This document shows, in pieces, positions 326 to 57,452 of a stretch of DNA of 64,000 bases; position 1 is the first letter of the stretch; every line of letters begins with the position of its first letter. A program made the translations under genes and the position numbers. Below the pieces are notes generated by a model. It searched no databases. It saw nothing but the letters and a program-made list of their open reading frames with translations, and was not told the origin of the DNA. The DNA lies in assembly GCA_964561765.1 (NCBI GenBank), contig CAZLQI010000004.1, positions 54,665 through 118,664 of the forward strand. The letters run 5' to 3'. This DNA is from an uncultured Chromatiales bacterium (GTDB lineage Bacteria; Pseudomonadota; Gammaproteobacteria; DATFLL01).

Positions 326-354
326 GTACAGTATGCCACTTTAATGATAACTCG

Positions 355-2623: not shown

Positions 2624-2634
2624 TGTTGCATCAT

Positions 2635-3039: not shown

Positions 3040-3058
3040 GTCATGAATACATCAGCCA

Positions 3059-3889
3059 TTAATGCAGTGAAGAGCCGATTCTTCCCCAACGCACGGAGTC
3101 ATCTTGCGCATCCCAACTCATCCAGATCATAAAGGCACGACCGATCAAGTTCTTCTCCGGTACACAACCCCAATAACGACTATCGCGGCTGTTATCGCGA
3201 TTATCACCCATTGCAAAGTAACACTGTTTCGGTACCGTGACGGTGAAATTCACACTGGGATAGGCAGGATTGATAAGAATGGAGTGTTTCACGCCACTAA
3301 GGTCTTCAATACGACGTTCCAACCGTTGTCCATAGGTGCCTATATAGCTCCCGTCCGGCATCTGTGGCATCATTTTACCATTTATATACAAGACCTTATT
3401 ACGATAGCTCACCAGGTCACCGGGTAGACCGACAACACGTTTAATATAATCAATGGAAGGATCGTCCGGATAACGGAAGACTATCACGTCACCACGTTTT
3501 GGTTCGCCGACATTGATAATTCTATTATCAATGACAGGGAGTCTCATTCCATAAGTGAATTTGTTGACAAGAATAAAATCACCAATACGCAACGTTGGCA
3601 ACATTGAGCCAGAGGGGATACGAAACGGTTCGACCAGAAACGAGCGAAGTAGTAATACAATAAGGATAACAGGGAAAAAAGATCGAGCATATTCGACAAG
3701 CAGTGGTTCTTTATACCTTTGCGATGCTTCTCCCCGGGCGTCAGCAGTCGTTGAATCGCTATCTTCACCGCCAGTCGTAGACTGTAATTGCTTGCGCCGG
3801 TGGGGAGCAAAAAACAGTGCATCAATCACCCATATCACTCCGGTCGCGCCGGTTCCAATCACGAGCAACAATTCAAAATCCAAGTTCAT
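3059..3889 (-). CDS. lepB: Signal peptidase I
   Basis: Catalytic Ser motif region and the [14 protein letters not shown] box. lepA-lepB order. Confidence 0.9.
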
Positions 3890-5691
3890 TTTTCCTTCCC
3901 TACATGTAATACAGCGAGAAAGGCCTCCTGGGGAATTTCCACCTTGCCGACTTGTTTCATCCGACGTTTACCAGCCTTTTGTTTTTCTAGCAATTTCCGT
4001 TTCCGACTAATATCACCACCATAACATTTGGCGGTCACATTTTTTCTCAACGCCTTTACGTTAGAACGAGCAACTATCTTCGAGCCAATCGCAGCCTGAA
4101 TGACTACGTCGAACATCTGGCGCGGAATGATTCCTTTCATACTATCAACCAGATCCCGCCCGCGCTGTTGCGCCCGGCCCCTGTGCACAATAATTGATAA
4201 GGCGTCGACACGTTCAGTATTGATAAGTATATCAAGTTTTACCAAATCAGCCGCCATGAAACATTTAAAGTCATAATCCAGCGAAGCAAATCCACGGCTG
4301 ACTGATTTCAAACGATCAAAAAAATCAAGGACCACTTCGTTGAGGGGAAGTTCGTAAATCATGGATACTTGATTTCCCAGATACTGCATCTTTTTCTGAA
4401 TACCGCGTTTCTCCACGCACAGTGTAATCACATTACCTACATATTCGTGTGGAACCAGGATATTGGCATTGATAATCGGTTCACGAATTTCGTTGATATG
4501 ATTCGACTCCGGCAGCTTGGACGGATTATCGATATTGAATACTTCGCCCTTGGTCGTTTCGACTTCATAAATTACGGTTGGGGCAGTCGTAATGAGACTG
4601 AGATTATACTCACGTTCCAAACGCTCCTGCACGATCTCCATGTGCAACATGCCCAGAAAACCGCATCGAAAGCCAAAACCCAGTGCCTGTGAAGTTTCGG
4701 GCTCATAAAACAGGGCGGCATCGTTAAGGCCCAGCTTGGACAATGCGTCACACAGGGCCTCATAGTCTTTCGATTCGATAGGAAATAATCCGGCAAAAAC
4801 TCGTGGCTGTATCGGTTTGAAACCTGTCAGTGGTTTCTCTGCAGGACGATCGGCATGCGTTATTGTGTCACCTACGGGGGCACCGTTAATGTCCTTTATG
4901 CCCGCAATGACGAAACCGACCTCACCCGCTTTGAGACTGCCAATACCTTCTGGTTTAGGCGTAAAAATGCCCACCTTTCCCACCTGATAGGTCCGCCCTG
5001 TCGACATAATCAGCATTTTCTGGTGGGCACAGAGTGAACCTTGCATAACCCGCACCAGAGAGACGACACCCAGATAATTATCAAACCAGGAATCGATGAT
5101 GAGTGCCTGCAGTGGCGCGTCAGGATCCCCTTCGGGAGGCGGGATGCGTTGTACCAGTTGCTCAAGCAGCTTATCGACACCGAGTCCCGACTTCGCACTG
5201 ACCTTCAATGCATCGTGGGCATCAATACCGATAATTTCCTCAATCTGATTGATGACCTGCTCAGGTTCGGCCGCCGGCAAGTCAATCTTGTTGAGTACAG
5301 GCAATACCTCCAACCCCTGCTCAATGGCGGTGTAGCAGTTGGCAACGCTCTGCGCTTCTACACCCTGCGACGCATCCACTACCAGCAGTGCACCTTCACA
5401 GGCTGCCAGAGAGCGCGACACTTCGTAAGAAAAATCCACATGTCCGGGGGTATCAATGAAGTTGAGCTGATAGGATTTCCCGTCTCTTGACATGTACTTC
5501 AGGGTCACGCTTTGTGCCTTGATGGTAATGCCCCGTTCACGTTCCAGATCCATGGAATCCAGTACCTGTGCAGCCATTTCCCGCTCGCTCAATGCGCCAC
5601 ACATTTGAATAAAGCGGTCCGCCAAGGTCGATTTACCATGATCAATATGGGCTATTATGGAAAAGTTTCTAATGTGTGCCAGTTTGCTCAC
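3886..5691 (-). CDS. lepA: Elongation factor 4 (LepA)
   Basis: [17 protein letters not shown] near the N-terminus and full-length LepA similarity. The start is probably the GTG at 5691 ([10 protein letters not shown]). The ORF-track start at 5802 would run through an intrinsic terminator. Confidence 0.9.
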
Positions 5692-5710
5692 GTCAAATAT
5701 CACTTCTTTA

Positions 5711-5749
5711 CATGCAAAATACAAAAAGGGGCGCTTACCGCAGCGCCCC
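5711..5749 (-). terminator. Rho-independent terminator ending the rpoE-rseABC-grx transcription unit
   Basis: On the minus strand, GGGGCGCT-GCGGTA-AGCGCCCC (8-bp GC stem) is followed by TTTTTGTATTTTG. Confidence 0.45.
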
Positions 5750-5897
5750 GAATTTCGGGTTAGCCCCCCCTTGCCATACACGTGCGCAAAGGACACGAAC
5801 ACGGGAGGGGGTCAATACCCTTTTCCGTCCTGACATCACCGCCATCCCGGGTACACGATATATGACTGCGACAGCGTGTTGAAGTACCAAGTGCTTA

Positions 5898-6164
5898 TTA
5901 TATGGATTTTTTTGTCCCTTCGATATAGTCATACAACGTTGGTTTATCAAGAAAATAATGACACAATTCGTGCTCATCAGCCTTCAATACCGGGATCTTC
6001 TCACCATACAAGTCCTCGAGTACCTGATTATCCTCAATATCAATAACTGTCAGGCGAAAACCAAGGACTTCACGATGACGTCCAAGCTCCGCCAGCATCT
6101 CCTCGCACAAATGACAGTATGTGCGGACATATACCGTCAATTCTATTGCGGACTGCGAATTCAT
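5898..6164 (-). CDS. Glutaredoxin-like (thioredoxin-fold, DUF836-type) small protein
   Basis: 88 aa with a CHLC (CxxC) motif early in a thioredoxin-like fold. Lies downstream of rseC. Confidence 0.6.
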   Translation of the reverse strand: MNSQSAIELTVYVRTYCHLCEEMLAELGRHREVLGFRLTVIDIEDNQVLEDLYGEKIPVLKADEHELCHYFLDKPTLYDYIEGTKKSI

Positions 6165-6539
6165 TACTGTTTCACCTCATCGAGTCACAAGAGCGGGGAA
6201 AATGGACCGACCCGATTAGTGAATCAATACCTGTAGCCAACGATTCTGAGGCAATTATAGGCTCAAATACCATCGTTGATGCACATCTCCGAGCCAACTG
6301 TTCTGCAGCCTGACGATGGCATTGCCGGGCCGTATACCGGTATCAAAGGCGGTGCCATGCATCATCTCCCTGCTCGGTACCTCCGCCAGTGCCTGGACCG
6401 ATAGTCGGCAAAGTATCGAACAGGCTGGCGTACAGTGCCATCGCCCTTTCGATGCCTCGAAACCGGGCCAGCGCCCACGGAAATCGCTCTGTGGTGCCTA
6501 GTATAGCAGGAACGTAAATGATGCAGATGGGGATGGATA

Positions 6540-7016
6540 TCAGGTGGGTCGAGGCACGCTATGTCCGCTCGCAGCCCGTCGCAGGATAACGGGTTGATAG
6601 CGTGGGTTCTGGCTGATCTTCATACTGAATCGCCGCACCCAGAGCATGCCCAGAGCCAGTCCTATTCCACCAAAAAAAATACTCGCGAGTTGCGTGGAAT
6701 CAAATTTTAACTGTGCCGCCAGGAACTGGCCCAAGAGGGCGAATAAAAACAGGCACAATAGCGGTAAAATGTAGACGACTATCGATCCCCGCACCAGGGC
6801 GCCTTCATTTAGGCCGACTACGACTTCCTCTCCCGGTTTCGCGTCTATCCGGTTCAGCACGCGCAGGTGCACGGTCTTGCGCCCCAGCACCTTGGACAGC
6901 GCTCCGGTACCACAGTCCTTGCGCGCAGCGCAACTGCCACAGGTGGAACTACGCTGGGTCTCCACCCAGGCCTGCGCACCATTGCACTCTACGACAAGAG
7001 CGGTTTCCTCGATCAT
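6540..7016 (-). CDS. rseC: Sigma-E regulatory protein RseC/MucC
   Basis: 158 aa with an N-terminal Cys cluster and a C-terminal hydrophobic segment. Fourth gene of the rpoE-rseABC operon. Confidence 0.8.
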   Translation of the reverse strand: MIEETALVVECNGAQAWVETQRSSTCGSCAARKDCGTGALSKVLGRKTVHLRVLNRIDAKPGEEVVVGLNEGALVRGSIVVYILPLLCLFLFALLGQFLAAQLKFDSTQLASIFFGGIGLALGMLWVRRFSMKISQNPRYQPVILRRAASGHSVPRPT

Positions 7017-7018
7017 CG

Positions 7019-8029
7019 CTACTCGCCTTTATAAACCAATGAATTACCAATGAGCCGAACCGTGGCTTGTGGCACCTCGCCAACAACAGTCACATAATGT
7101 TCGTCCAAACGACGCCCAAAAGCATTGACTGCACCGATCCATGAGCTACCTACCAGAGGATCGGTGCGTGTTGATAATTTCTCAATAAAGACCGAGGCCA
7201 TGCCATCCGAAAAGACCATGTGCACTACCATAGGTCGTTCGGGAACGGAGTTGTAGCGGTGGTAGGCATCGAGTTTGAATCCTGAAGGTAGATTCGCTAC
7301 CATCCAGCGCCGCGGGGTATTCAATGTCGTATCCATATCAGGTTCTTTCGCCGCATACCAGGAGAACGTCTTCCCTGACATCGTAGGTTCCAGCAGTTTA
7401 TCCGATACCTGTTTCAGGTAGTGAATTTCGGTAAACATGAATTGCTCAATCGGCTTTCCAGAATCTCCCAACAAATCTGTGCGCAATAACAGTTCGGTTT
7501 TTTTATCGACCCACAAATTGTAACCATACCGGTAATGATCACGCGGACGAATGATGATTCTCTGCGTTTCATGGCCTGCCATACGTCCAGTCCCGTCAAG
7601 CGCAAAACTGTAATGGGCGCTCAGGGAATCGGCATTGATAGGAAAATTCGGTGGGAACTGTTTGGATGGATGCACTTTCTCGACAAGCGCGGAACGATTA
7701 TCCGACAGGATGCAGGTCAGGCGGTTGTGATCAAGCACCACTTCGCGTCTAGGTCCGTTGAGTGAAATCAATCGCTCACGTTCACCCGTTGTGCCTGCAC
7801 TGTGGATAATGCGCATGGCATGCAGGTGATTATCAAAACGGTACACGAAGGCGCCGTCATATTTGAGTGTGTGTGCTGCCCGGGCCATTTTGCGCAGCCA
7901 GACCTACACTTTATCGAGCGAACCGGAATCTGTTTTCTGCCTGTTCCGTCCAGCGGCAAAGGCCATCTCACCAGCCAACAGGGTAAACAAAAACAGGATC
8001 AGGAAAAATCTCTTAACGATTCTCATTGA
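7019..8029 (-). pseudogene. rseB: Sigma-E regulatory protein RseB/MucB interrupted by an in-frame amber codon
   Basis: The signal-peptide segment MRIVKRFFLILFLFTLLAGEMAFAAG...SLDKV is followed in the same frame by TAG (complement of 7904-7906). It then continues VWLRKMARAAHTLKYDGAFVY..., which aligns with the MucB mature N-terminus DWLNRLAEADRQNSFQGTFVY. The downstream part is full-length RseB. Confidence 0.6.
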
Positions 8030-8606
8030 CCATACGGCTAGGCAACGGATAACTCACTATACGCATATAGGGCATCATGCCTTGCACCCCCGAGGCCATC
8101 GAATACTCATTGTGGTTGACGAGAAAACGGCTCAGTCTGGTTCGCACATCGCGCGTCTCATTGACCAGCTTCGTCTTGTTAGCCACGCCAGCGGCTACCG
8201 GTCCAATGCTGAGCATCGCTGCCGGCCTGGTAGTCACCACCAGATTTTCATTGACTGAAGTGCTCGGCGAGCTTGCGTGCAGGCTCAGAATTGCAACGGT
8301 CGCGATCGTGGCTGCGACAGCCATACCAATCGCCTGCTTTGCAAGGGGCTGTGTCCGCCAACCCCGACGACGTGGCGCCAATACAACCGGCTCGTGTTCC
8401 AATGCCTGACTGACACGCCCCGCCAGTCCTTGCAGCATCACATTGGGAAGATTGTTACGCAACGCATCGCTGATCAGCTGGTAGCGTTCAAAACGGGTAA
8501 GGATGTCGCCGTCGGCATGCATGCTGCTCAACACGCCCCAATGCTCATCACCGTTTAGCTCGCCGTCCAGGAAGGCGGACAACTTCTCGCTGACTGTATC
8601 GCTCAT
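8013..8606 (-). CDS. rseA: Anti-sigma-E factor RseA/MucA
   Basis: MSDTVSEKLSAFLDGEL N-terminal anti-sigma domain and a central TM segment. Overlaps the rseB start by 17 nt. Confidence 0.8.
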   Translation of the reverse strand: MSDTVSEKLSAFLDGELNGDEHWGVLSSMHADGDILTRFERYQLISDALRNNLPNVMLQGLAGRVSQALEHEPVVLAPRRRGWRTQPLAKQAIGMAVAATIATVAILSLHASSPSTSVNENLVVTTRPAAMLSIGPVAAGVANKTKLVNETRDVRTRLSRFLVNHNEYSMASGVQGMMPYMRIVSYPLPSRMVNENR

Positions 8607-8652
8607 AACTGCACTACCTCGAATTGGCAAAATCCAACCGGGACACTCTGAA

Positions 8653-9228
8653 TCAACTCAACAAAGGCGCCAGCTTGGCATCAATCGCCTCTCGTGCCCT
8701 GAAAATCCGTGATCGCACGGTTCCAATCGGACAAGACATAGCTTGCGCGATCTCCTCGTAACTCATGCCTTCCAATTCGCGCAGCGTTATCGCCGTTCGC
8801 AGATCTTCGGGTAAATCATCGATCGCCTGGAAAACCACGCGTTCGATCTCGTCTTTGAACAACATGCGCTCCGGCGTAGCATTCTCGCGCAAAGCGCCTG
8901 CGCCCTCATAATACTCGGCGTCCATCACATCAACATCCGAATCCGGCGGGCGACGCCCTTGTGCCACCAGACAATTCTTTGCCGTGTTGATGGCGATGCG
9001 GTACAGCCAGGTGTAAAACGCGCTATCACCGCGAAATGACGGCAACGCCCGGTATGCCTTGATGAAGGTCTCCTGCGCTACATCCTGTGCTTCATACTGA
9101 TCCTGGACATAGCGCGAAATCAGCTTGACGATCTTGTGCTGATACTTGATAACCAGGACATCAAATGCCTTTTTATCACCTCGCTTAACCTTCTCGACTA
9201 ACGCCTGATCAACGTTCTCCTCGGCCAT
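8653..9228 (-). CDS. rpoE: ECF sigma factor sigma-E (RpoE/AlgU)
   Basis: 191 aa with region 2 and region 4 of an ECF sigma factor, highly similar to RpoE. Confidence 0.9.
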   Translation of the reverse strand: MAEENVDQALVEKVKRGDKKAFDVLVIKYQHKIVKLISRYVQDQYEAQDVAQETFIKAYRALPSFRGDSAFYTWLYRIAINTAKNCLVAQGRRPPDSDVDVMDAEYYEGAGALRENATPERMLFKDEIERVVFQAIDDLPEDLRTAITLRELEGMSYEEIAQAMSCPIGTVRSRIFRAREAIDAKLAPLLS

Positions 9229-9277
9229 GAGGACCCATCCCCTTTCAACTCTGACGGGCCATCCGACTCCTTATCAT

Positions 9278-9305
9278 TACGACACGTACATGTCGAATAA
9301 GTTCG
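9278..9305 (-). promoter_or_regulatory. Putative sigma-E-type autoregulated promoter of rpoE
   Basis: On the minus strand, CGAACTT (consensus GGAACTT), a 16-nt spacer, then TCGTA (consensus TCTGA/TCAAA), roughly 50 nt upstream of the rpoE ATG. Confidence 0.3.
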
Positions 9306-9447
9306 CCAGATGGCCATGCTTTTGGGTATAGTGTGTCCCACCCTCGGAGGCGACAATCAACCGTAGCCAGCCTTGGATTCCCACCGGGATTAGCCTTAAT
9401 GATAACTGCAACAAAAGTACACCGCGCCAGCACTTGCCCCTTGAACT

Positions 9448-11052
9448 GTGCCTATGCCCCGCCCCGTACAACAACACTCTGACGTACTGGTCATCGGCAG
9501 TGGAGCAGCCGGCCTGAGCCTGGCGCTGCGCCTCGCAGATACTCATTCTATCTCATTGATTTCAAAAGGCCCACTATTAGATGGTTGTACCTTGTGGGCA
9601 CAGGGTGGCATTGCCGCCGTACTCGACCCCGCCGACTCGGTCTGCGCACATATCAAGGATACGCTCGACGCCGGCGCCGGGCTGTGCAATTCTGACGTAG
9701 TCAGGCATGTGGTTGAGCAAAGTGCGGCCTGTATCCACTGGCTGATAGCGCGCGGTGTGCCCTTCACATCAGGCCAGTACTCCGACGGGCGCGACGGCTA
9801 TCACCTCACCCGCGAGGGGGGACACAGCCACCGGCGCATCATCCACGCCGCCGACGCCACTGGCCAGGCCGTGGAAACCACACTCGGCGAACAGGTTCGC
9901 CGACACTCGAATATCCGTATTTTTGAACGCCACAATGCGCTTGACCTGATCACCGCGCACGCATCCGATAACGTACCCCATCGCTGTCTGGGGGCCTATG
10001 TGCTGGATCGAGACAGCGGCCATGTTGGTGTATTTCGCGCCCGCCAGATCGTACTGGCAACCGGTGGTGCCAGCAAGGTCTATCTGTACACCAGCAATCC
10101 CGACAGCGCCAGCGGTGACGGCATCGCCATGGGCTGGCGTGCGGGTTGCCGGGTGGCCGACCTGGAGTTCAACCAGTTCCATCCGACCTGCCTCTATCAC
10201 CCCAAGGCAAAATCATTTCTCATCACCGAGGCCATTCGCGGCGAAGGCGGGCAACTACGGCTGGCCGATGGTCACCGTTTCATGGACCGATTCGACCCGC
10301 GGGGCGAACTCGCGCCGCGCGATATCGTCGCCCGTGCCATCGACCACGAGATGAAACGCACCGGTGCAGACTGTGTCTATCTGGATATCAGCCACAAGCC
10401 AATCAGCTTCATCAAGGCGCATTTTCCGACCGTCTACGAACGCTGCCTGGCATTCGGCCATGATCTGAGTCGAGAGTCCATACCCGTCGTACCGGCAGCC
10501 CATTATACCTGCGGCGGTCTGGTCACCAATATCCACGGTGGTACTGATGTCGAGGGGCTCTATGCCATCGGCGAGGTCGCCAGTACCGGCCTGCATGGTG
10601 CCAACCGCATGGCCAGCAACTCGCTGTTGGAATGCCTCGTCTTCGCCAAATCTGCCAGTGAACATATCCGCGACCAACACCGCCCCCTGCCCGGTCCCCT
10701 GCCAGAATGGGATGAAAGCCGAGTGACCGACTCCGATGAAGAGGTGGTAGTCTCACATAACTGGGATGAACTGCGCCGATTCATGTGGGATTACGTGGGT
10801 ATCGTTCGCACGACAAAACGCCTGCAGCGGGCCAAAAACCGGGTGGATCTGTTACAGCGTGAAATTCAGGAATATTACGGTAATTTCCGCGTCACCAGCG
10901 ATTTACTGGAACTACGCAATCTCGCCCAGGTCGCCGAACTCATCATCCGCTCTGCCCTGCTGCGGCGTGAAAGCCGTGGTCTGCATTACACCCTCGATTA
11001 CCCCGAAGCAGATGCCACCAGCGCTGCGCTGCACACCGTGCTGACACCCTGA
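9448..11052 (+). CDS. nadB: L-aspartate oxidase
   Basis: FAD-binding GSGAAGL N-terminus and full-length NadB similarity. Divergent from rpoE, as in E. coli. Confidence 0.9.
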
Positions 11053-11090
11053 ACGACACCCATCACGGCAACCTCGGTCGCAATCACCGT

Positions 11091-11561
11091 CTATTCGCTC
11101 GCCGATGTGCGGCCCACGCCCTCCAGGCACAGGCGCACCCGGAGGCGACGCAACAGATCCTCAGGCAGGCTGTCCACGGCCAGCACGACTGCCCGGTCGC
11201 GCGCACACGGACAGGAAAAACGCAATACGATCAAAACAGGCAGAACAAGACTATCAGCCAGCAAATGGCCCTCCAGCACCTCGCCAGATCGGGTAAACAG
11301 ACGCCAGCGCCCCTCACCGGACCAATCAAGCCGCACAATCGCCGCCGGATCTCGCAAGCGCACCCGGCGCAGTCCAAGGGACAGGCTCCAGAGCACCAGA
11401 CCCAATAACCCGATGCGCAGCCCGTACGGCACACTGAGGGGAGACAACAAGGCAGTGATGCCCAGCACATGCACCGCGATTAGTGCGCAGGTCAACTGTC
11501 GCGAGGGCTGCAGCTCAAGGCTCAACCGCGTTGCGAATTTGGACGACAACATCAGCGACAT
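11091..11561 (-). CDS. ygfX: YgfX/CptA-family inner-membrane protein (DUF1434)
   Basis: About 155 aa with two TM helices after a short N-terminal segment. Immediately downstream of sdhE, as in the E. coli sdhE-ygfX pair. The start is uncertain. Confidence 0.55.
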   Translation of the reverse strand: MSLMLSSKFATRLSLELQPSRQLTCALIAVHVLGITALLSPLSVPYGLRIGLLGLVLWSLSLGLRRVRLRDPAAIVRLDWSGEGRWRLFTRSGEVLEGHLLADSLVLPVLIVLRFSCPCARDRAVVLAVDSLPEDLLRRLRVRLCLEGVGRTSASE

Positions 11562-11763
11562 CCTTGTCAAAGGGCACGGCACGGCCCATCAGATATTCCA
11601 GTAGCAAGGGATCGGAGCACGCCAGCAGGGTTTCCAGTGCCGTGCGCTGTACCGCATCCAGTTCGGCATAACGCCGGTCCATAAAACCCTGCAACAGGGC
11701 ATCGAGTTCCAGCATACCACGCCGACATTGCCAATAGAGGCGCTGGAAGTCCCGCGTCTGCAT
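11515..11763 (-). CDS. sdhE: FAD assembly factor SdhE (YgfY/CptB)
   Basis: 82 aa: MQTRDFQRLYWQCRRGMLELD... aligns with E. coli SdhE (the conserved WACRRGM.ELD motif). Confidence 0.8.
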   Translation of the reverse strand: MQTRDFQRLYWQCRRGMLELDALLQGFMDRRYAELDAVQRTALETLLACSDPLLLEYLMGRAVPFDKDVADVVVQIRNAVEP

Positions 11764-29841: not shown

Positions 29842-30501
29842 CTAGATGGTTCCACCCAACAGGGGGACGAAACTGACTCGGTCCAGAGTGTGGCGCTGGA
29901 AGGCGTCTCCGCTGCGCACAATGACCTCCAGGGCCTGCCCGGATTCCGCACCGACGGGGATCACCAGTCGCCCCCCGTCAGCGAGTTGTGCCATCAGGTC
30001 CGCAGGGATATCCTGCGCCGCCGCGGTGACAATGATACCCTCGTACGGTGCATGTTCTGCCCAGCCCGAACTGCCATCAGTGTGTCTGAGCATGACATTG
30101 TGCAGTTGCAACAGACGCAGATGCTTGCGCGCACAAACCTGCAATGCGCCGATGCGTTCCACACTGTAGACCTGATCGACAAGGTGAGCGAGGATTGCGC
30201 TTTGATAACCGCAACCCGTCCCGATCTCCAGCACATGCGCCGGTCTACCCTGGCCCAGCAACGCCTCGGTCATGCGGGCCACGACATAGGGTTGGGAGAT
30301 GGTCTGGCCGTACCCAATGGGCAGGGCCGTGTCCTCATAGGCACGGCTCGACAGGGCCTCATCGACAAAGATATGCCGCGGCACCCGACGCATGACGTCC
30401 AGGACCTGCAGGTCCTGTATCCCCTCCTCACGCAGGCGCTGCACCAGCCGGTCGCGGGTACGCTGAGAGGTCATTCCGATACCATGCAGATGCCTACTCA
30501 T
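29842..30501 (-). CDS. pcm: Protein-L-isoaspartate O-methyltransferase
   Basis: SAM motif [11 protein letters not shown]. surE-pcm order. Confidence 0.9.
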
Positions 30502-31253
30502 AGTGTACCTGTCTCACTCAGCCAGTCGGCCACCGTCTCTAACGCGGTATAGCGGGTCAGATCGACCTGCAATGGGCTGATCGACACGTGCTGGCGGCGC
30601 ACTGCATGAAAGTCGGTACCAAGACCGGCGTCCTGCTCGCCACCGGGGGGTCCTATCCAGTAGATATCGCGGCCGCGGGGGTCGCGGGCATGGATGACCG
30701 GCTCGGCCTTGTGGCGATGCCCCAGGCGTGTCGCCTCGAAACCCTCCAGCGCCTCCCAGGTACAATCCGGCACGTTGACATTGAGTATGGTGTCCGCTGG
30801 CAACGGGGAGTGGTGCAGGCGCGCGATCAACTGCGCAACGACCCGCGCCGCGGTCTCATAGTGGCGCAACTCAGGGCCGATCAGTGAGACCGCAATCGCC
30901 GGCAATCCGAGAAAACGCCCCTCCATCGCCGCGGCCACGGTGCCGGAGTACAACACATCGTCACCCAGGTTTGCCCCGGCATTGATGCCGGCAATGACCA
31001 TGTCGGGTTCCTCGGTCAGCAAACCGGTAATGGCAAGGTGCACACAGTCGGTCGGTGTCCCGTCGACGGCAATGACATCCGCGGCAATATGGCGAGCCCG
31101 GATAGGATTGTCCAGCGTCAACGAGTTACTAGCGCCGCTGCGATCGCGATCCGGTGCCACCAGCGTGACCTGGGCCAGCTCGCGCAAGACCCCGGCAAGG
31201 CAGACAATGCCCGGGGCCAGATAACCATCATCATTACTCAACAAAATACGCAT
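30498..31253 (-). CDS. surE: 5'/3'-nucleotidase SurE
   Basis: [11 protein letters not shown]-terminus. Full-length SurE. Confidence 0.9.
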
Positions 31254-31524
31254 CTGGGTGCCATCACTCCACATATTTTCATTCCACTCCCCCCCGCCGC
31301 GCGGGCACAGCCTGGTGCAGACCGCTCACCCGCACGACTATACGCGAAAGCCCGATAACGGACACCGTCTGCACACGCCCGAACAAGGTCATCTGGAGGT
31401 AGCACCGCGCCTGCATCTGACCTCGCTGATCTGTCCGCTCCCAGCCGATACAGGTTAATGTCTATTCTTTGCGTTGAGCGTGCTTTTCGGCGATCATAAA
31501 CCCTGAACTTCCGCCCAAAATGCC

Positions 31525-32112
31525 ATGAACGATGATCACGACACGCCGCGCCGCCCCGGCGACACCTCGAAATCGCAGCAACCCGACGCGAGTGAAGACG
31601 ACAATGCCCTGTTCCGTAAGGCCATGGCACAGGTACGCCCATTGCATCACAACAAAGTCAATCTTCTCCTCCCGCCTCCCCCACCCCATACCCGGCAACG
31701 AGAACATGAGCGCTCGGAGGCGGTGTCACTCCTGCTCAGCGATCCACCCGACAATGCGGACATGGAGGCCGGCGAAGAAGTGCTGTTCTCCCGCCCGGGA
31801 TTACAGTACGGCCTGATACGCAAGCTGCGCCGCGGACAACTGAGCATGCATGGCGAACTCGATCTGCACGGAATGAGCGTGCCCGAGGCACGCGAGGCAC
31901 TCACCGGTTTCCTGCACGATGCACTTGCCCGCGGCCTCCGTGGTGTGCGTATCATCCACGGCAAGGGACATGGTTCGCCAAACCGTCGGCCTGTTCTCAA
32001 GACCCACATCAATTACTGGCTGCGCCAACGCGATGAGATCCTCGCCTTCTGCTCGGCCCGTCCCGTCGATGGCGGCACCGGTGCTGTCTACGTCCTGCTC
32101 CGACGCGTCTGA
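31525..32112 (+). CDS. Smr-domain protein (SmrA-like)
   Basis: C-terminal Smr domain LDLHGMSVPEAREAL...IIHGKG. Low-complexity acidic/Pro-rich N-terminus. Confidence 0.7.
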   Translation: MNDDHDTPRRPGDTSKSQQPDASEDDNALFRKAMAQVRPLHHNKVNLLLPPPPPHTRQREHERSEAVSLLLSDPPDNADMEAGEEVLFSRPGLQYGLIRKLRRGQLSMHGELDLHGMSVPEAREALTGFLHDALARGLRGVRIIHGKGHGSPNRRPVLKTHINYWLRQRDEILAFCSARPVDGGTGAVYVLLRRV

Positions 32113-32162
32113 ACCGAATCCCATCACACGACGGCAAGTCGGCTCACGCACAATGGCCCCAT

Positions 32163-32676
32163 TCAGCCCTCGATCTCCACCCGCTTCTCTATCGCGGGAT
32201 TGGCCGGATCATCACCGATCAGCTCACGCACCACGGCGGTGGCATAGCTCCCCGCTGGCAGACTAAAACGCAACGTCAATTCACCGGCAACACCCTGCTC
32301 CCACGCCAGATCCGTCAGCCCGAGTCGCAAGGCACGCCGTTCCTGTCGCAATCCCACACCGGCCAGTGCGAGACACCACTCATCCAGTCCCACCAGCGCC
32401 TCAGCCTCCACGGCGGCGGCCTGGGCGCACACCGGCAAACTGCGCCAGACGCCGGGCCAGCCAGTCAGTGTTCAGGCCACGTTTGCGCAATTGCAACCAG
32501 ACATGTTCACCATCGACCACCGTACCCGCACTGACCTGCAGATCGGGCACCGGGCCGGGCGTATAGCCGAGGATTTCCTCGACGACGAAATCCTCCGGTC
32601 GGGCACGCAGGATGGCGTGTGCAACCGCTGCACCGTGGGCCAGGGCGAGGGGGTGACAAACAGGGTGATCAGACAT
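32163..32676 (-). pseudogene. truD: tRNA pseudouridine(13) synthase TruD remnant with internal deletion and frameshift
   Basis: The ORF 32401-32718 encodes the TruD N-terminus (RARPEDFVVEEILGY...). The ORF 32163-32438 encodes the TruD C-terminus (LTLRFSLPAGSYATAVVRELI). The frames differ, and roughly 180 central codons are missing. Confidence 0.65.
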
Positions 32677-32830
32677 GGGGTAGAGACTGCAAGCGGGGCC
32701 GTGGACAATATCGGCCAATGAATGATTCGATGAGACTGTACACTACGGGGCGGCAATGCCGATATCACGCACTATGCGCAGCCCCGCTGACAGCACGCAA
32801 TCTGCCATCGTCCGGTACGCAGCGGACCAC

Positions 32831-33730
32831 TCACTTGGCCGTGGCCAGAGTCTTGCGCAATCCGGTCACCACACACCGCGCCAGCTCACCGGGAACAAAC
32901 TTGGTGAGAATATCATCAGCACCGCATTGGCGGGCCCTTTCCGAGTTGATGGCGCCATTGAGTGAGGTGTGTAACAACACATACATATGTGAAAAACGTG
33001 GATCCGCCCGCAGGGCCTCGGTCAAGCCGTAACCGTCGATCTCGGGCATCTCAATATCGGAGATCACCATCGCGACCGGGGCTTCGTCATCGCGGCGCTT
33101 ACGCAACGCCTCCAACGCCTCGCGTCCATCGCGTGCCAGGATATAACTCACGCCTATCTCATCCAGCATGCGGGTGGTCTGCGCGCGCGCCATGGCCGAG
33201 TCATCGACGACCAGTATCGGTTGCCTATGCAAGGCAGGGTCATCCAGCCCGCTAATGTCCTCATCCAGTGCCATCGCTGCAGGTTCGACCACCTCGACCA
33301 ACACACGTTCGATATCCAGAATCTGCACCAGAGCGTCATCCACGCGGGTTACACCGGAAATATAGGACCGCGCCCCGGAGCCATGCGGTGGTGGCGTCAC
33401 CTGATTCCAATCGCAAACCACAATCCGTTCAACGCGCTCGACCAGAAAGCCCTGGGTGGCACGGTTGAATTCGGTCACCAGCACAGAGGAACCGTGCGTC
33501 TCGATCGCCGCGCGTCCTATCGCCCGACTCAGATCAATGACCGACAACGCGACACCACGCAAGGTGGCAACACCGCAGACCGTGGCATGCGCATGCGGTA
33601 CGTGGGTCAGCGCTGGACAGGGGATTACTTCCTTGACCTTGAGCACATTGATCCCGAAACGCTGTCGACCGCCCAGGTTGAACAGCAGCAGTTCCAGGCG
33701 ATTATCGTTGCGATGGGTTGGGTCATTCAT
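32831..33730 (-). CDS. cheV: Chemotaxis protein CheV (CheW-like plus receiver domain)
   Basis: An N-terminal CheW-like domain and a C-terminal REC domain (ILVVDDSAMAR...DIEMPEIDG). Confidence 0.8.
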   Translation of the reverse strand: MNDPTHRNDNRLELLLFNLGGRQRFGINVLKVKEVIPCPALTHVPHAHATVCGVATLRGVALSVIDLSRAIGRAAIETHGSSVLVTEFNRATQGFLVERVERIVVCDWNQVTPPPHGSGARSYISGVTRVDDALVQILDIERVLVEVVEPAAMALDEDISGLDDPALHRQPILVVDDSAMARAQTTRMLDEIGVSYILARDGREALEALRKRRDDEAPVAMVISDIEMPEIDGYGLTEALRADPRFSHMYVLLHTSLNGAINSERARQCGADDILTKFVPGELARCVVTGLRKTLATAK

Positions 33731-33850
33731 GCGCGTAGGCGAATCGTAGGTCACGGTGTCTTGGCTATCGGCCGCGCGGACTATTTCTTGAATCTCGGAC
33801 ACGCCCCGCGCAGCCGCGAGGCGCTGGAGGCGCTGGAGGCGCAGCATGCA

Positions 33851-34333
33851 TCAGGACGTCGCCAGGGTGGTGAGCAAGACCACGGCGTGGGTGGCAATCC
33901 CCTCAGACCGTCCGATAAACCCCATGCCCTCAGTGGTCGTGGCCTTGACGTTGATCTGCCCCGGGGCAATACCGAGATCATCGGCAAGCTGCGTGCACAT
34001 GGTGGAAATATGCGGCCCCAGGCGAGGCAACTGGGCCACGACAGTGACATCCGCGTTGCCTACGACATACCCCTGATCAGCGAGCAATAGCACAACACGA
34101 CGCAGCAATATCCGGCTGTCGATATCCTTGAAGGCCGCGCTGGCGTCAGAAAAGTGTCGGCCAATGTCCCCCAGTCCGGCCGCCCCAAGCAGGGCATCAC
34201 ACAGGGCATGAATCACGACATCACCATCGGAGTGTGCCGCCAGACCCTGCTCGTGCGCAATGTGCACGCCACCGAGGATCAGACGACGCCCGTCGGTAAA
34301 GCGGTGGGCATCATAGCCATGACCTATGCGCAT
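33851..34333 (-). CDS. ispF: 2-C-methyl-D-erythritol 2,4-cyclodiphosphate synthase
   Basis: MRIGHGYDAHRF N-terminus. Full-length IspF. Confidence 0.9.
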   Translation of the reverse strand: MRIGHGYDAHRFTDGRRLILGGVHIAHEQGLAAHSDGDVVIHALCDALLGAAGLGDIGRHFSDASAAFKDIDSRILLRRVVLLLADQGYVVGNADVTVVAQLPRLGPHISTMCTQLADDLGIAPGQINVKATTTEGMGFIGRSEGIATHAVVLLTTLATS

Positions 34334-35082
34334 ACCCCCTCCTGCTGTCGGCGCAGATACAACTCGGCCAGCGCGAGGTCCTGCGGGTGGGTGATCTTGA
34401 TGTTGTCCGGGTGTCCGGACACCATTCGTGGATGCAGTCCCTGGGCCTCGATGGCGGCGGCCTCATCGGTGACCACCTCCCCCTGTGCCAGGGCTGCCTC
34501 CAACGCGGCACGCAACACGCCGAGACGAAACATCTGCGGTGTCAGCGCCCGCCACAATCCGTCCCGGCTCACCGTCTCCCGCACGCGACCGGCACGGTCA
34601 CAACGCTTCACTGTATCACTGACTGGCAGACCCAGCAGGCCACCCACCGGATCGCTCGCCAGGGTGGTCAGCAGTATGTCGATATCGGCATGGCGCAAAC
34701 AGGGTCGAGCGGCATCGTGGACCAGCACCCAGTCGTGCTCGTCGGCATGGCCGGCCAGCAGGACTAGAGCATTGAGAACAGAATGGCACCGCTCCTCACC
34801 CCCCGCTGCGGTATACACCGGCACGCTGGTTTCGGGACGGTGCGCAGACCAGTATGGATCATCTGCGGCAACGGCCACCACGATGCCAGCGATGGCCGGG
34901 TGGCCGGCGAGTCGCAACAGGGTATGGGCAATCACGGCACGGCCCGCCAGCGGCAAATACTGCTTGGGCAGAGGTTTACCCATACGCAAACCCACTCCCG
35001 CCGCCGGGACGACCGCCCAGTATCGCGGAGTAGAACAACGCTCGGGAAACGGTGGGGAGATGACAACATCGGTGGGCATGGC
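34324..35082 (-). CDS. ispD: 2-C-methyl-D-erythritol 4-phosphate cytidylyltransferase
   Basis: AVVPAAGVGLRMG motif. Overlaps ispF by 10 nt. Confidence 0.85.
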   Translation of the reverse strand, partial: AMPTDVVISPPFPERCSTPRYWAVVPAAGVGLRMGKPLPKQYLPLAGRAVIAHTLLRLAGHPAIAGIVVAVAADDPYWSAHRPETSVPVYTAAGGEERCHSVLNALVLLAGHADEHDWVLVHDAARPCLRHADIDILLTTLASDPVGGLLGLPVSDTVKRCDRAGRVRETVSRDGLWRALTPQMFRLGVLRAALEAALAQGEVVTDEAAAIEAQGLHPRMVSGHPDNIKITHPQDLALAELYLRRQQEGVCA

Positions 35083-35113
35083 GATGGACCGGATAGCGTG
35101 GAAACGCAATGAT

Positions 35114-35392
35114 TCAGCGTTTTTCTTCAACAATCTGATAGTAAGTCTCGCCCGGTTTGATCATGCCCAGTTCGTTGCGGGCACGCGCCTCGATCGCCGC
35201 CAACCCGTGTTTGAGATCACGGACCTCGGCCAGCAGCGTCTGATTGCGTTCTGCCAAGTGGGTATTTTCTTGCCGCTGGGTCGACAGCGTGTGCTCTAGG
35301 CGCCATACCGGGCGCATGCCGTCGGCACCGATCCAGAGATCGTATTGCAACACAACGAACAGGTACAACAGGATGGCGAAAACAACTTTCAT
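35114..35392 (-). CDS. ftsB: Cell division protein FtsB
   Basis: 92 aa with an N-terminal TM helix and a coiled coil. Upstream of ispD. Confidence 0.8.
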   Translation of the reverse strand: MKVVFAILLYLFVVLQYDLWIGADGMRPVWRLEHTLSTQRQENTHLAERNQTLLAEVRDLKHGLAAIEARARNELGMIKPGETYYQIVEEKR

Positions 35393-35474
35393 GTGCTGGA
35401 CTGGCCCCCCCGGCACGCGCCCTGTCAGCATGATAGCAGATTATCGCGGGCAACCGCATTCGTCTTCTCGGCCC

Positions 35475-35845
35475 TCATCCATCACCAGAGAGGAACTGTC
35501 CCTTCTTGATGTTCACCGGCAGTCCTGGCGTGCCACGTTCTGGATAAAGTTGGTCTGCCGACACAAAAAGGCCGGTGTCTGCAACACATCGACCACTGCC
35601 GCCACCTCATTGATGGGCGTATCTTCATGCACGTCGGTGAGCACCGCCACACCGAGCTGGCGTTTGACCGACTCCAGGATACGCAGACCTTTCTCCAGCC
35701 CTAGTCCGCGGAAACTCCCGCTCGAGGTTCGGTTGGCCTTGTCGAAGGAGGATTTGTAAATGAGCGACATGCCTAGCCGCGCGGTAATGACCTGAATCGC
35801 CTCGGCCGTGTCCAGCGCCAGTTGTCTCGATCACACAGGGCCCGG
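35475..35845 (-). pseudogene. kdsA: 2-dehydro-3-deoxyphosphooctonate aldolase (KdsA) remnant
   Basis: [46 protein letters not shown]...TDVHE...[15 protein letters not shown] aligns with KdsA residues about 30-135. There is an in-frame TGA at 35831-35833 where the conserved Glu of VLESRD sits. A frameshift occurs near 35513 ([13 protein letters not shown] then stop). Both the N-terminal 25 codons and the C-terminal half are absent. Confidence 0.65.
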
Positions 35846-35891
35846 CTATCAGGAACAGGGGCAGCCTTGAAATCGCACAGCGACATCGCGC

Positions 35892-37655
<1,764 letters not shown>

Positions 37656-44119: not shown

Positions 44120-44731
44120 TCAACCCTGTTCCGCCTCCAGCAGGCGCCGGACGGGGGCATAGGAGCGCCGATGTACGGGCGTGACGCCCAGGCTCGCCAG
44201 GGCTTCCAGGTGCTGTTTCGAGGGGTAACCCTTGTGTTTCGCCAGACCGTAACCGGGATACCTGGCATCCAGCTCAACCAGTTCCCGGTCGCGTACTACC
44301 TTGGCCAGGATCGAGGCGGCGCTGATCGAGGCGACCCGTGCATCGCCCTTGATCACCGCCTCGGCCGGGCACGGCAAGCTGGGGCAACGGTTGCCGTCGA
44401 TCAAGGCAAACTGTGGCGCCACCGACAGGGCTGCGATGGCGCGCTGCATGGCCAGCAAGCTCGCCTGCAGGATATTGATGCGGTCGATCTCCTCGACCTC
44501 GGCACGGCCCACGCCCCAGGCCAGCGCCCGCTGGCGGATTTCCTCAGCCAGACACTCGCGTTTCGCCGCGCTCAGGACCTTGGAATCGGCCAACCCCTCG
44601 ATGGGGCGCTCAGGGTCGAGAATCACCGCCGCAGCCACCACCGGCCCGGCCAAGGGGCCCCGCCCTACCTCATCCACACCGGCTACATATCGGTAACCCC
44701 GAGTGAAATCAAACCCGACTTGTGCTGACAC
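44120..44731 (-). CDS. rnhB: Ribonuclease HII
   Basis: [15 protein letters not shown] active-site motif. GTG start with a GAGGA SD. Confidence 0.9.
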
Positions 44732-44982: not shown

Positions 44983-45135
44983 CACCGCCCCGCCACCCTG
45001 GCGGCTCGCATACACCCGATCCGGCTGCCTGCATCAATGTCCACCTCCGGGCCAATCACCGTGAACAGCCCGACAGTCACACCGTCGCCTATCCTGGCAT
45101 CGGGGTCTACAACCGCGCGCGGATCGACACTCATA
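44983..45135 (-). pseudogene. lpxA: UDP-N-acetylglucosamine acyltransferase LpxA N-terminal stub (50 codons)
   Basis: The ATG overlaps the fabZ TGA (ATGA), as canonical. [40 protein letters not shown] aligns with the hexapeptide-repeat start of LpxA, then a stop. There are only about 250 nt before rnhB and no lpxB. Confidence 0.6.
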
Positions 45136-45577
45136 CCGCCTCGCGTTCGGCGCACATCAACTCAGCACTACAAACCACCTTGTCATCAACCAGCGCCTTG
45201 CCAACAAATTTCCATACCCCGCGCATGCTCTTCACAACATCGACCTCAAGACGTAACTGGTCGCCTGGTTCGACCGGCTGCTTGAAACGCACATTGTCGA
45301 TACCCACCAGATAATACAGCGATCCTTCATCCGGTTTCTTACCTACGCTCAGGAAGGCCAGTATTCCAGTTGCCTGGGCCAATGCCTCGACGATAAGTAC
45401 ACCCGGCATCACCGGACGTTGTGGAAAGTGTCCGCAGAAGTAAGGCTCGTTGAACGAAACATTCTTGATGGCCACAAGCGAGCGGCCTGGTTCACACGCC
45501 AACACCCGATCCACCAATAAAAAGGGATAACGGTGCGGGAGATATTGAAGTATTTCGTGTATATCCAGTGAGCTCAA
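45131..45577 (-). CDS. fabZ: 3-hydroxyacyl-ACP dehydratase FabZ
   Basis: [13 protein letters not shown] and GHFP motifs. Probable TTG start with an AAAAGGAG SD. Confidence 0.9.
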
Positions 45578-45581
45578 GGCG

Positions 45582-46622
45582 TCACTCCTTTTGTGCTTGA
45601 GATTGTAATTGTTTCTCCAACACCTTGAGGCGCCGCGCCATAGCGTCGAGTTGTTTAAAACGTACAAAATTCCTGTGCCATTGGCGGTTGGGTTCCAGTG
45701 GCACACCGGACGAGTACACCCCGGGCTCGGAAATGGAATGAGTCACCATCGACATACCGGTGATTTGTACGTTATCGGCTATTTCCAGATGTCCGACTAC
45801 ACCCACACTTCCGGCCAGGACACACGCCCGTCCAATCTTCGCACTACCTGCGATGGCCGTACACGCAGCAACTGCGCTATGTGCACCAATGTGCACATTA
45901 TGGCCAACCTGGATCAGGTTATCGAGTTTTACACCCTCCTCCAGGATGGTGTCCTCCAACGCTCCACGGTCAATCGTCGTATTGGCACCCACCTCCACAT
46001 CATCACCGATACGCACTGTGCCAAGCTGTGGCACCTTGACCCAGCGGCCCTGATCATTGGCAAGACCAAAACCTTCTGCACCGATCACCACACCCGGGTG
46101 TAACAACACACCCTGGCCGACAATAACATCATGGCACAGCGTGACATTGGCAATCAGCTGTGTGTTGCGGCCGATCTCCACCCCGGCACCCACAACACAG
46201 CCCGGGCCGATAAAAACGTCTTCAGCAATATGGGCACCGGATTCTATGACGCTGTTAGGTCCAATCCAGGCACCGTTGGCCACGCGGGCATCTGCAGCGA
46301 CCACCGCGGTAGCGTGTATGCCCTGTGGGTGCTCCTGCTCACCGAGTAGCAAAGTCGCAATCCGCGCATAAGCAAGATAGGGGTCAACCACGATTAGGGC
46401 GGCTGTCGGACAGGCATCAATATCCGGGCGGCGTAAAATCACGGCTGCCGCCTGCGTCTGTGGCAACTGTTTGCGAAATGGCGCACGGGTCAGGAAGGTT
46501 ATCTGTCCCGCACTGGCAAGGTGCAGAGGGGCAACACCCTCAATAATGAGTTCGGCATCACCGTGAACCTCACCCGCTACATACTCCGCTAGCATGCCGA
46601 GGGTATATTTTATCGGCGAGAC
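45582..46622 (-). CDS. lpxD: UDP-3-O-acylglucosamine N-acyltransferase
   Basis: Full-length LpxD with left-handed beta-helix hexapeptide repeats and the conserved C-terminus. Confidence 0.9.
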
Positions 46623-50950: not shown

Positions 50951-52132
50951 CTATCCTGCCAATTTCATGAGTTGCTGGTGAGCGACACGGCGTGCAGATG
51001 CGTCGGCTTCCAGAACAGTATCCAGCGAATCGGCAACGTGCACCGGTAGTGCATCGAGTACCCCTTCTATCAGGCAATGAATGCCGGTGAAACGCAGTTG
51101 ACCGTCAAGGAACGCCTGCACGGCCACCTCGTTGGCGGCATTAAGTACGGTCGATGCCGTACCACCCGCTGCCATGGCCTCGCCCGCGAGACGCAGACAG
51201 GGAAAGCGCACCGGATCTGGCACTTCGAAATCCAGGTGAGCGACATCGAACAGATCCAGACTATGCACGCCGGCTGCAATACGCTCCGGCCAGGCCAGGG
51301 CATGGGCAATCGGCGTGCGCATGTCGGGATTGCCGAGTTGCGCAAGCACCGTTCCGTCGGCGTATTCTACCATGGAATGGATCACGCTTTGTGGGTGCAC
51401 GACCACCTGGATCTGCTCAGGCCGGGCATTGAACAGCCAACAGGCCTCGATCACCTCCAACCCCTTGTTCATCATGGTGGCCGAATCCACCGATATCTTG
51501 CGCCCCATGCGCCAATTGGGGTGGGCAATGGCCTGCTCCGGTGTGACCTGCTCCAGGGCGTCCATGGGTGTCGTGCGAAATGGTCCACCGGAGGCGGTCA
51601 GCAGGATGCGCTGAACCCCTACCTCACCCAGGCCGCGCTGAAAATCGGCGGGCATACACTGAAAGATGGCATTGTGCTCGCTGTCAATCGGCAACAATTG
51701 TGCGCCATGCGCCTTGATCTCATCCATGAAAAGTCGACCCGACATGACCAGGGCTTCCTTGTTGGCCAACAGGATGCGCTTGCCGGCACGTGCCGCCGCC
51801 AGGGTGGGCTGCAGGCCAGCTGCCCCGACAATGGCCGCCATGACGTAGTCGACCTCATCGAGTGCGGCCACCACCTTCAGCCCGTCCATACCGGAGAGCA
51901 CACGGGTGCATGCGCCGGCATCGCTGAGCCTCGCCGCCAGTTGCCCGGCCGCATCTTCGTCACCCATCACGGCATAATCCGGCATATGGCGCAGACACTG
52001 TGTATAGAGGCGTTCAACCTGCCGGTGTGCCGTCAGGGCAACAACACGGTAACGCCCGGGATGTCGGGCGATGACGTCCAGTGTACTCATGCCGATGGAG
52101 CCGGTTGCCCCAAGTATGGTCACGCCCTTCAT
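50951..52132 (-). CDS. dxr: 1-deoxy-D-xylulose 5-phosphate reductoisomerase
   Basis: [14 protein letters not shown] motif. Full length. Confidence 0.9.
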
Positions 52133-52959
52133 CGCGACACCCCCATCAAAATCAGCCCCAACATGAACACTGGTGCCGCCGCCGTCAGGCTGTCCAGACG
52201 ATCGAGGATCCCGCCATGCCCAGGCAATAGCTGGCCGCTATCCTTCACGCCAGCCATACGCTTGAACAGGCTTTCAAACAGATCGCCCAGGATCGAGCAC
52301 ACTACCGTCACCAGGCAAAGCACAACGAACAACCCCAGATAGGCCGCTGACATCCTGAAGACAACATCACCGGCGATCAGTGCGATCAGTACAGTGCCCA
52401 GCAGCGCCCCGCCTACCCCTTCCCACGTCTTGCCAGGGCTGACCCGGGGGGCCAGTTTGCACCTGCCCCAGCGTCGACCGGCAAAATAGGCACCACTGTC
52501 CGCCACCCACATCAACAGGATGAGAAACAACAGATAAGAACGGCCGCTACCGGGTATCTCACTGAGGGCGACCAGGGCCACCCAGGATGCCACGAGTACC
52601 AGGATCCCGGTCAGCAGGCGATGTAAACGCCCCCTGCCCCGTTCGCTGATCGCCGGGTACACCCTGATCAGCCGCCAGGCCAGTAGCCACCACAAGACCG
52701 TCAGGGTCAGGATCACCGGTAACACCCAGTTCGCCACCATGGCGATATCGGCCATGACCATCAGGATGAGGATAAAAAGGACATAGAAACCGCGCCCCGG
52801 TAGTGAATGAAGACCGGCGAGCGTGCCCCATTCCCAGGCCCCAATCGCCAGAACACCACCCAGCACGATAGCTAACCAGGGGGGTGGTAGTGCAATCACC
52901 CCCCAGATCACCAGGGGCACCAGGATGGCGGCGGTGAGTACGCGCAGCCTAAGCATCAT
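52129..52959 (-). CDS. cdsA: Phosphatidate cytidylyltransferase
   Basis: Multi-TM CdsA with a C-terminal signature. Confidence 0.85.
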
Positions 52960-57153: not shown

Positions 57154-57452
57154 GATTAACTCCTGATTGTGTTGGGTTGGTCCTCCATGCACCCCATCTG
57201 CCAACCCCCGGTCAAAACCGTTGTCGCTGTGGCCCGTGGTGGGCCAGCGGCAGGGGCACCCAGGCAGGTGTGCCGGTGCATGTGTGGATTTTCCCCTTTA
57301 CGGGGCCGTAATATACCCGCACCGAACCCGATGCAGACGGAAGCCTGATTTGCTTACCAGGCGCGCGCTTTATACCATAAAAGGGCTTGGAACAACAAAT
57401 CCGCTCCCCCAGTGTGGCATCGTGCCACGCTGGCCGGAACCTGGCCTTCAGG

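Follow-up and report, generated by a model that had tools for sequence, protein, structure and literature searches.

Spontaneous deletions between short direct repeats are reported in the lacI gene of Escherichia coli, the classic case (Albertini et al., 1982, Cell). Short-repeat deletions are explained by replication-slippage and RecA-independent models. The enzyme that concerns us here is represented by the profiles NF002153/TIGR00094 and PF01142, the families of TruD, tRNA pseudouridine(13) synthase. E. coli TruD has D80 as its catalytic residue, and its conserved core includes K79, Q87, N129, and F131 (PMC12084886). Disruptants of truD in Thermus thermophilus grow as wild type, and the same paper, relaying Kaya and Ofengand (2003), describes the E. 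coli truD disruption as being without a growth phenotype in LB (PMC12084886). The absence of a growth phenotype in disruptants of either species supports the original prediction that loss of truD is tolerable because the gene is nonessential (PMC12084886).

The window, by which we mean the whole 64-kb stretch of DNA analyzed, contains on its minus strand the genes ftsB, ispD, ispF, cheV, two TruD-like open reading frames (ORFs), surE, pcm, a VTT/DedA-family gene, nlpD, and rpoS, in that order. The order ispD-ispF-truD-surE-pcm, which the original prediction had given as the E. coli type, is supported as ancestral by the order of genes in relatives. Coordinates of the features discussed are listed in Table 1.

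Table 1. Features of the truD locus and other elements of the window discussed in the text
Feature	Position	Strand	Basis or remark
truD pseudogene, 5' fragment	32401-32676	-	tblastn against L087 TruD; NF002153 match; ORF on 4 public contigs
truD pseudogene, 3' fragment	32163-32436	-	codons ~285-374 plus stop; frame differs from that of the 5' fragment
Deletion junction, where one copy of an 11-nt direct repeat, GCCGGTGTGCG, is kept	32426-32436	-	flank alignment to L087
surE, downstream anchor	30498-31274	-	Pfam SurE, 205 bits
Smr-domain gene, SmrA-like, convergent with truD	31525-32112	+	Pfam Smr, 96.9 bits (cutoff, 25.7)
cheV, intact	32831-33730	-	longest ORF extends to 33847; start at 33730 by relatives
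ispF, upstream anchor of the conserved cluster	33851-34333	-	Pfam YgbB, 221.6 bits
ispD	34324-35133	-	
ftsB	35114-35431	-	
kdsA pseudogene	35478-35891	-	between pyrG (35892-37652) and ftsB
lpxA, truncated after codon 40	45015-45134	-	between fabZ (45131-45577) and rnhB (44120-44731)
t44 RNA	57176-57304	-	Rfam, 68 bits, E value of 5e-13; immediately upstream of rpsB, its usual place

An internally deleted truD between ispF and surE

Relatives of the locus were reached through a protein search with CheV, which led to a 100%-identical variant of 335 amino acids (aa), to relatives with 80% and 77% identity, and to a 299-aa member of the same 90% cluster. One of the contigs, L087 (Logan SRR25425416), has ~92% nucleotide identity to the window and is collinear with it over about 9 kb apart from a 611-bp gap. 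Its gene order is ftsB-ispD-ispF-cheV-truD-smr-surE-pcm-VTT-nlpD-rpoS, with smr on the opposite strand, and its truD is intact at 374 codons.

In the ORF listing, the two TruD-like ORFs of the window occupy 32401-32718 and 32163-32438 of the minus strand and are in different frames. Using tblastn, it was found that residues 1 to 81 of L087 TruD match window positions 32676-32434 with 89% identity (E value of 5e-41), while residues 285 to 374 match positions 32435-32166 with 88% identity (E value of 9e-39). The remnant, at 32163-32676, keeps only the first ~84 and the last ~87 codons of the gene. Its start is the ATG at 32676 rather than the TTG at 32718, which corrects the earlier coordinates. 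The 5' fragment is a 91-codon ORF made up of 84 native codons (Met1 to Arg84) followed by seven out-of-frame codons (PGRRRGG) and a stop.

Profile searches gave the same picture. The first ORF matched positions 16 to 71 of the 412 positions of the Pfam TruD profile PF01142 (E value of 1e-7, 31.7 bits), and the second matched positions 368 to 412 (E value of 5e-7, 29.4 bits), both just above the 27-bit domain cutoff of this profile. Against the NCBIfam TruD equivalog NF002153, the 5' fragment matched positions 7 to 70 of 353 (E value of 2e-17, 62.6 bits) and the 3' fragment matched positions 269 to 340 (E value of 4e-18, 65.0 bits); both scores are well under the family cutoff of 413 bits, and neither fragment gives a full-length family match. 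The TruD profiles are thus matched at their two ends only, and the observation is correct and far beyond chance. The ORFs, Pfam, NCBIfam, and tblastn to L087 all confirm the earlier statement that truD retains only N- and C-terminal codons in different frames. There is no single uninterrupted TruD reading frame, since the 5' fragment stops seven codons past the junction, and the remnant sits at the orthologous position, the ispF-surE interval, where collinear L087 carries an intact truD, and is descended from truD. The segment is an internally deleted, frameshifted, and nonfunctional truD remnant, and the two small ORFs at 32163-32676 should be annotated together as a truD pseudogene.

To define what has been lost, L087 TruD was aligned to its E. 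coli counterpart (PDB 1sb7). The missing block corresponds to L087 codons ~85 to 284 and to E. coli residues ~70 to 267, about 200 codons, and D95 of L087 (in GLKD95) aligns to E. coli D80. The catalytic Asp of the G-x-K-D motif and the residues equivalent to K79, Q87, N129, and F131 are all absent from the truD of the window; the deleted segment carried these five residues together with the TRUD insertion domain. Lacking them, the locus has lost the capacity to encode an active pseudouridine-13 synthase. No second truD was found in the 64-kb window by tblastn with L087 TruD, and among the best 120 homologues in the protein database no full-length TruD of more than 74% identity was found besides that of L087 itself. 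The organism would have lost pseudouridine-13 from its tRNA, provided that its genome has no further truD.

The deletion junction and the age of the loss

The junction was mapped by blastn and by manual alignment of the flanks to L087. When the remnant was aligned globally (MAFFT) to truD of the more distant contig L083, the 5' fragment was misplaced, and this alignment was discarded. The blastn comparison of the window with L087 returned two blocks, 35477-32426 matching 1724-4770 and 32436-26211 matching 5371-11622, which overlap by 11 window bases. The alignment of 32100-32800 to intact truD genes of relatives, suggested along with the original prediction, therefore places the junction, through L087, at 32426-32436.

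The 11 shared bases are the footprint of a direct repeat. The truD gene of L087 contains GCCGGCGTGCG at 4760-4770 and GCCGGTGTGCG at 5371-5381, two copies lying 611 bp apart that are identical at 10 of 11 positions (consensus GCCGGYGTGCG). In the intact gene, the first copy covers codons 81 to 84 and the second, in another reading phase, codons 284 to 288. The window consists of the left flank of the first L087 copy and the right flank of the second, with one copy, GCCGGTGTGCG, between them. The remnant is 514 bp long, compared with 1,125 bp for the intact L087 gene, a difference of exactly 611 bp; as 514 bp and 611 bp add up to exactly 1,125 bp, no other gain, loss, or indel has occurred in the remnant. 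The deletion is wholly intragenic, with its endpoints 240 bp and 270 bp from the ends of truD. Since 611 (3 × 203 + 2) is not a multiple of 3, the reading frame is shifted: seven foreign codons follow the 5' part before a stop is reached, and the 3' part is no longer in phase with it.

Such near-repeats are common in this GC-rich gene. The truD gene of L087 has 21 position pairs of 11-mers with no more than one mismatch, among ~630,000 possible pairs, and shuffled truD gives about 14.5 such pairs. With 21 pairs among ~630,000, it is very unlikely that both endpoints of the deletion would fall on such a pair by chance. The junction has the signature expected when DNA is deleted between short direct repeats: in L087 the segment that was lost has a repeat copy at either end, one copy is kept in the window, and neither filler nor mobile DNA is present. 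In all probability, truD was inactivated by a single 611-bp deletion between 11-nt direct repeats and is a young pseudogene, with no involvement of cheV or smr. The ancestral truD, of about 374 codons, would have carried two near-identical 11-nt direct repeats, and misalignment of these copies would have removed one of them along with everything between, 611 bp in total. The junction signature points to slippage or illegitimate recombination, the likely route being replication slippage or another short-homology, RecA-independent illegitimate recombination. The exact length and identity of the repeats at the time of the deletion are estimated from L087, which at 92% identity is a relative and not a direct ancestor.

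As the source appears to be an uncultured organism known from metagenome-type assemblies (NCBI and Logan contigs), and as assemblers can in principle collapse repeats, we considered whether the gap could come from collapse or misassembly, with an intact truD in the organism itself. A repeat of 11 nt is, however, far too short for assembly collapse, and point errors cannot explain 611 bp. Both fragment ORFs are recorded with identical sequence on four NCBI/Logan contigs. Furthermore, the identical junction and split truD are found in L081 (Logan SRR6439355), a separately assembled contig that matches the window with 99.7% identity over 9.5 kb and represents a slightly different population, with 14 single-nucleotide polymorphisms (SNPs), a 9-bp indel, and a 6-bp indel. 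We therefore regard an artifact of sequencing or assembly as extremely unlikely. The possibility raised at the outset that an intact frame might be recovered by small corrections in 32380-32460 fails for the same reasons, as 611 bp are missing and four contigs agree.

The distribution of the deletion dates it. As it is present in the window and in L081 and absent from L087, its origin falls between two splits, being later than the ~8% nucleotide divergence from L087 (dS of about 0.2) but earlier than that of 0.15% from L081. Compared with L087, the fragments have no extra stops, frameshifts, or indels, and their dN/dS values are 0.27 (5' fragment) and 0.40 (3' fragment), with 0.08 to 0.37 for the neighboring intact genes. 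Values below 1 and the lack of further lesions imply that most of the divergence accrued while truD was functional and that the deletion is recent. Between the window and L081, the 514 bp of the remnant contain three SNPs, while all intact genes of the 9.5-kb stretch together contain six; the SNP density of the remnant is ~5 times that of the intact genes and is at the intergenic level, in line with a relaxation of constraint once the deletion had occurred. In the old frames, the three remnant SNPs are all synonymous (nominal P of about 0.05, too few to interpret), at most a very weak hint of residual constraint.

These values bear on a further explanation, in which the fragments have been retained for a function, either as a 91-aa N-terminal peptide or as a mini-TruD without the catalytic core, produced by recoding or frameshifting and acting in RNA binding or regulation. 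The native start codon kept in the N-terminal ORF, the absence of further stops from both fragments, dN/dS below 1, and the synonymous SNPs would all be in line with such retention. However, a recent deletion is also expected to give dN/dS below 1, since the divergence from L087 mostly built up beforehand, three SNPs are a poor basis for any conclusion, and SNP density in the remnant is as high as in intergenic DNA. The fragments are devoid of every catalytic residue, and the best 120 TruD homologues, at 332 to 379 aa each, include no mini-TruD family. Retention for function is accordingly judged exceedingly improbable, and decay of a recently deleted truD is the preferred reading.

cheV, smr, and the gene order of the locus

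The original prediction placed an orphan cheV between ispF and the remnant and a plus-strand Smr-domain gene between the remnant and surE, and from these it suggested a rearrangement or insertion hotspot that had destroyed truD. Both genes are real and are where they were said to be. CheV is encoded by one intact ORF with a Pfam CheW domain (residues 52 to 184, 116 bits) and a Response_reg domain (residues 211 to 317, 60.6 bits); the receiver motifs VVDDS, SDIEMP, HTS, and TKF were read by eye, and the closest database homologues are annotated as CheV. Its dN/dS of 0.094 relative to L087 indicates strong purifying selection. A Pfam survey found no other che genes in the 64-kb window, and the description of cheV as an orphan holds in this local sense only. 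The CheV proteins of relatives start at the codon equivalent to M40, and the part of the ORF at 33731-33847 is probably intergenic. A 9-bp tandem-repeat unit, CTGGAGGCG, at 33834-33842, just upstream of the likely cheV start, is the site of an indel between the window and L081; the polymorphism would then be intergenic as well. The 335-aa CheV variant lacks one such unit relative to the 338-aa ORF of the window, for which an exact database look-up gave no match. The smr product scored 138 bits against NCBIfam SmrA (NF033154), for which the cutoff is 180 bits, and 68.5 bits against SmrB, for which it is 128 bits.

Gene order was compared with that in GTDB representative relatives collected by an IspF scan, which have no more than 71% IspF identity, include none of the window's own species, and were used for gene-order statistics only. 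None of the 80 GTDB representative loci had cheV within 10 kb downstream of ispF. Closer to the window, three related lineages have cheV with ispF on one side and an intact truD on the other: L087, L082 with its sister contigs (CheV identity, 80%), and L083/L084 (CheV identity, 77%). The last two share the order ispF-cheV-truD-smr-surE, with an intact TruD of 378 to 379 aa and smr on the opposite strand. As cheV is absent from all 80 GTDB loci and present in close relatives, it entered the ispF-truD interval in an ancestor common to a narrow clade, long before the damage to truD. CheV homologues of ~60% identity occur in other contexts, beside cheW in one contig and beside a GGDEF/EAL gene in another, and are uninformative on this locus.

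An opposite-strand smr between truD and surE was also found at three further loci, one of them from a Sedimenticola sp., and truD and smr are adjacent at another three. The search for cheV and smr at this position in related genomes that had been recommended was thus positive for both, with cheV in three related lineages and smr in many Gammaproteobacteria. By comparison of gene orders, smr is an ancestral neighbor of truD that is older at the locus than cheV, and it is no insertion scar. At six loci, smr lies near ispF with no TruD-like sequence between them, in some cases 30 to 1,700 bp after ispF, and at two others ispF is followed directly by pcm. The existence of such truD-less loci among relatives implies that truD has been lost or moved from the cluster repeatedly.

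The hotspot explanation, in which insertion of cheV and smr was the event that destroyed truD, draws on the absence of cheV from all 80 GTDB representative loci examined, which does mean that cheV was inserted at some point in the clade, and on the presence of other remnants nearby (kdsA/eno at 35478-35891 and lpxA at 45015-45134), which suggests that the wider region has suffered several deletions. It is contradicted by the full-length truD genes found beside the same cheV and smr in the three related lineages, by the wide occurrence of smr between truD and surE, and by the deletion itself, both endpoints of which are inside truD at a short direct repeat, with flanks collinear with L087. No transposase, integrase, insertion sequence, or other mobile element was seen in the 64-kb window in the Pfam survey. 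A hotspot as the cause of the loss is therefore very unlikely, and this part of the original prediction could not be upheld. With the 611-bp deletion as the preferred account, cheV and smr are long-standing, intact genes of the locus that took no part in the event, and the two genes should not be read as insertion scars.

Other gene remnants and comparison with known systems

The rest of the window contains only housekeeping genes: recO, era, rnc, lepB, lepA, rpoE-rseABC, nadB, sdh genes, lysS, prfB, recJ, hom, pyrG, tilS, accA, dnaE, rnhB, fabZ, lpxD, skp, bamA, rseP, dxr, cdsA, uppS, frr, pyrH, tsf, rpsB, and map. ORFs in window positions 1 to 5000 (recO, era, rnc, DUF4845, lepB, and the 3' part of lepA) have a third-position GC content of ~0.48 to 0.55, compared with ~0.65 to 0.75 elsewhere, and these low-GC3 ORFs are core genes. 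In an Rfam scan of the window, the t44 RNA was the sole match, and a tRNA scan of the window found no tRNA genes. It was considered whether dxr, cdsA, lpxD, and fabZ are missing; this was rejected, as all four are intact and are overlaid by antisense ORFs, e.g., 51077-52342 and 45609-46103 on the plus strand. No further obvious remnants were seen when the long intergenic gaps were inspected by eye in six-frame translation.

Two further remnants, both of genes that are normally essential, were identified in the window. Nearly all relatives have the order pyrG-kdsA-eno-ftsB, but in the window the whole of eno is missing between pyrG and ftsB and the kdsA remnant covers only KdsA residues ~14 to 140, in three frames, its 3' half being gone; the ORF at 35513-35770 matches positions 50 to 131 of the 270 positions of Pfam DAHP_synth_1. 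A 6-bp indel at 35826, in this remnant, distinguishes the window from L081. A different kdsA remnant (L087 positions 1278-1560), with about 26 N-terminal and about 55 C-terminal residues, is present in L087, which also lacks eno there, while in the more distant L083 eno is still directly upstream of ftsB. When protein sequences were searched with the kdsA fragment, most matches were partial KdsA entries and none was a near-identical intact copy, a result that is uninformative on a paralogue. The canonical order bamA-skp-lpxD-fabZ-lpxA-lpxB-rnhB-dnaE is otherwise kept in the window, but the lpxA cut lies only about 285 bp before rnhB and no lpxB follows. The lpxA fragment, a 50-aa ORF recorded on four public contigs, has 87.5% identity to the first 40 residues of the intact 257-aa LpxA of L089, a 95%-identical relative in which lpxA is followed by a convergent ORF whose C terminus is LpxB-like, as judged by eye only.

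Taken together, these remnants could suggest that the truD deletion is one symptom of an ongoing erosion of core genes in the lineage that also affects kdsA, eno, and lpxA/lpxB. The sister lineage, at 92 to 95% nucleotide identity, has an intact truD, an intact 257-aa lpxA, and its own different kdsA remnant. We consider such erosion unlikely; functional copies of kdsA, eno, and lpxA elsewhere in the genome, of which 64 kb are visible here, are much likelier. The kdsA/eno and lpxA remnants would matter more if the whole genome held no replacements, as they would then indicate loss of lipopolysaccharide biosynthesis in an uncultured gammaproteobacterium. If there were indeed no second copies, Kdo/lipid A biosynthesis would be breaking down in this gammaproteobacterium and enolase would be disappearing as well, implying a reductive and possibly host- or partner-dependent lifestyle.

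The case of truD itself is real but ordinary gene decay. It provides a clean natural example of the loss of a dispensable tRNA-modification gene through a short-repeat deletion. The event is recent enough that one can still see the junction, the repeat, and an intact allele of the ancestral type. Around the remnant, the genes have the same order and orientation as in the ispD-ispF-truD-surE-pcm-nlpD-rpoS cluster of E. coli and Pseudomonas, and of its two fragments one is orthologous to the N-terminal end and the other to the C-terminal end of E. coli TruD (PDB 1sb7, 1si7, and 1szw). Compared with that cluster, truD of the window lacks ~200 central codons, including the one for the catalytic D80, and is split between frames, while the ispF-truD interval contains an inserted cheV and the truD-surE interval an opposite-strand smr, two neighbors that are also present in close relatives with an intact truD. 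The locus resembles the truD-less loci of other Gammaproteobacteria in that truD is gone from the ispF cluster; those loci, however, have no detectable remnant, which fits older losses, whereas here the ends of the gene still have ~88% protein identity. As in the short-repeat deletions of E. coli lacI, the lost segment is delimited by a pair of short direct repeats (11 nt here), of which a single copy remains, and the junction contains no foreign DNA. The truD deletion differs from these in being natural and fixed in an environmental lineage, with its mechanism read from the junction.
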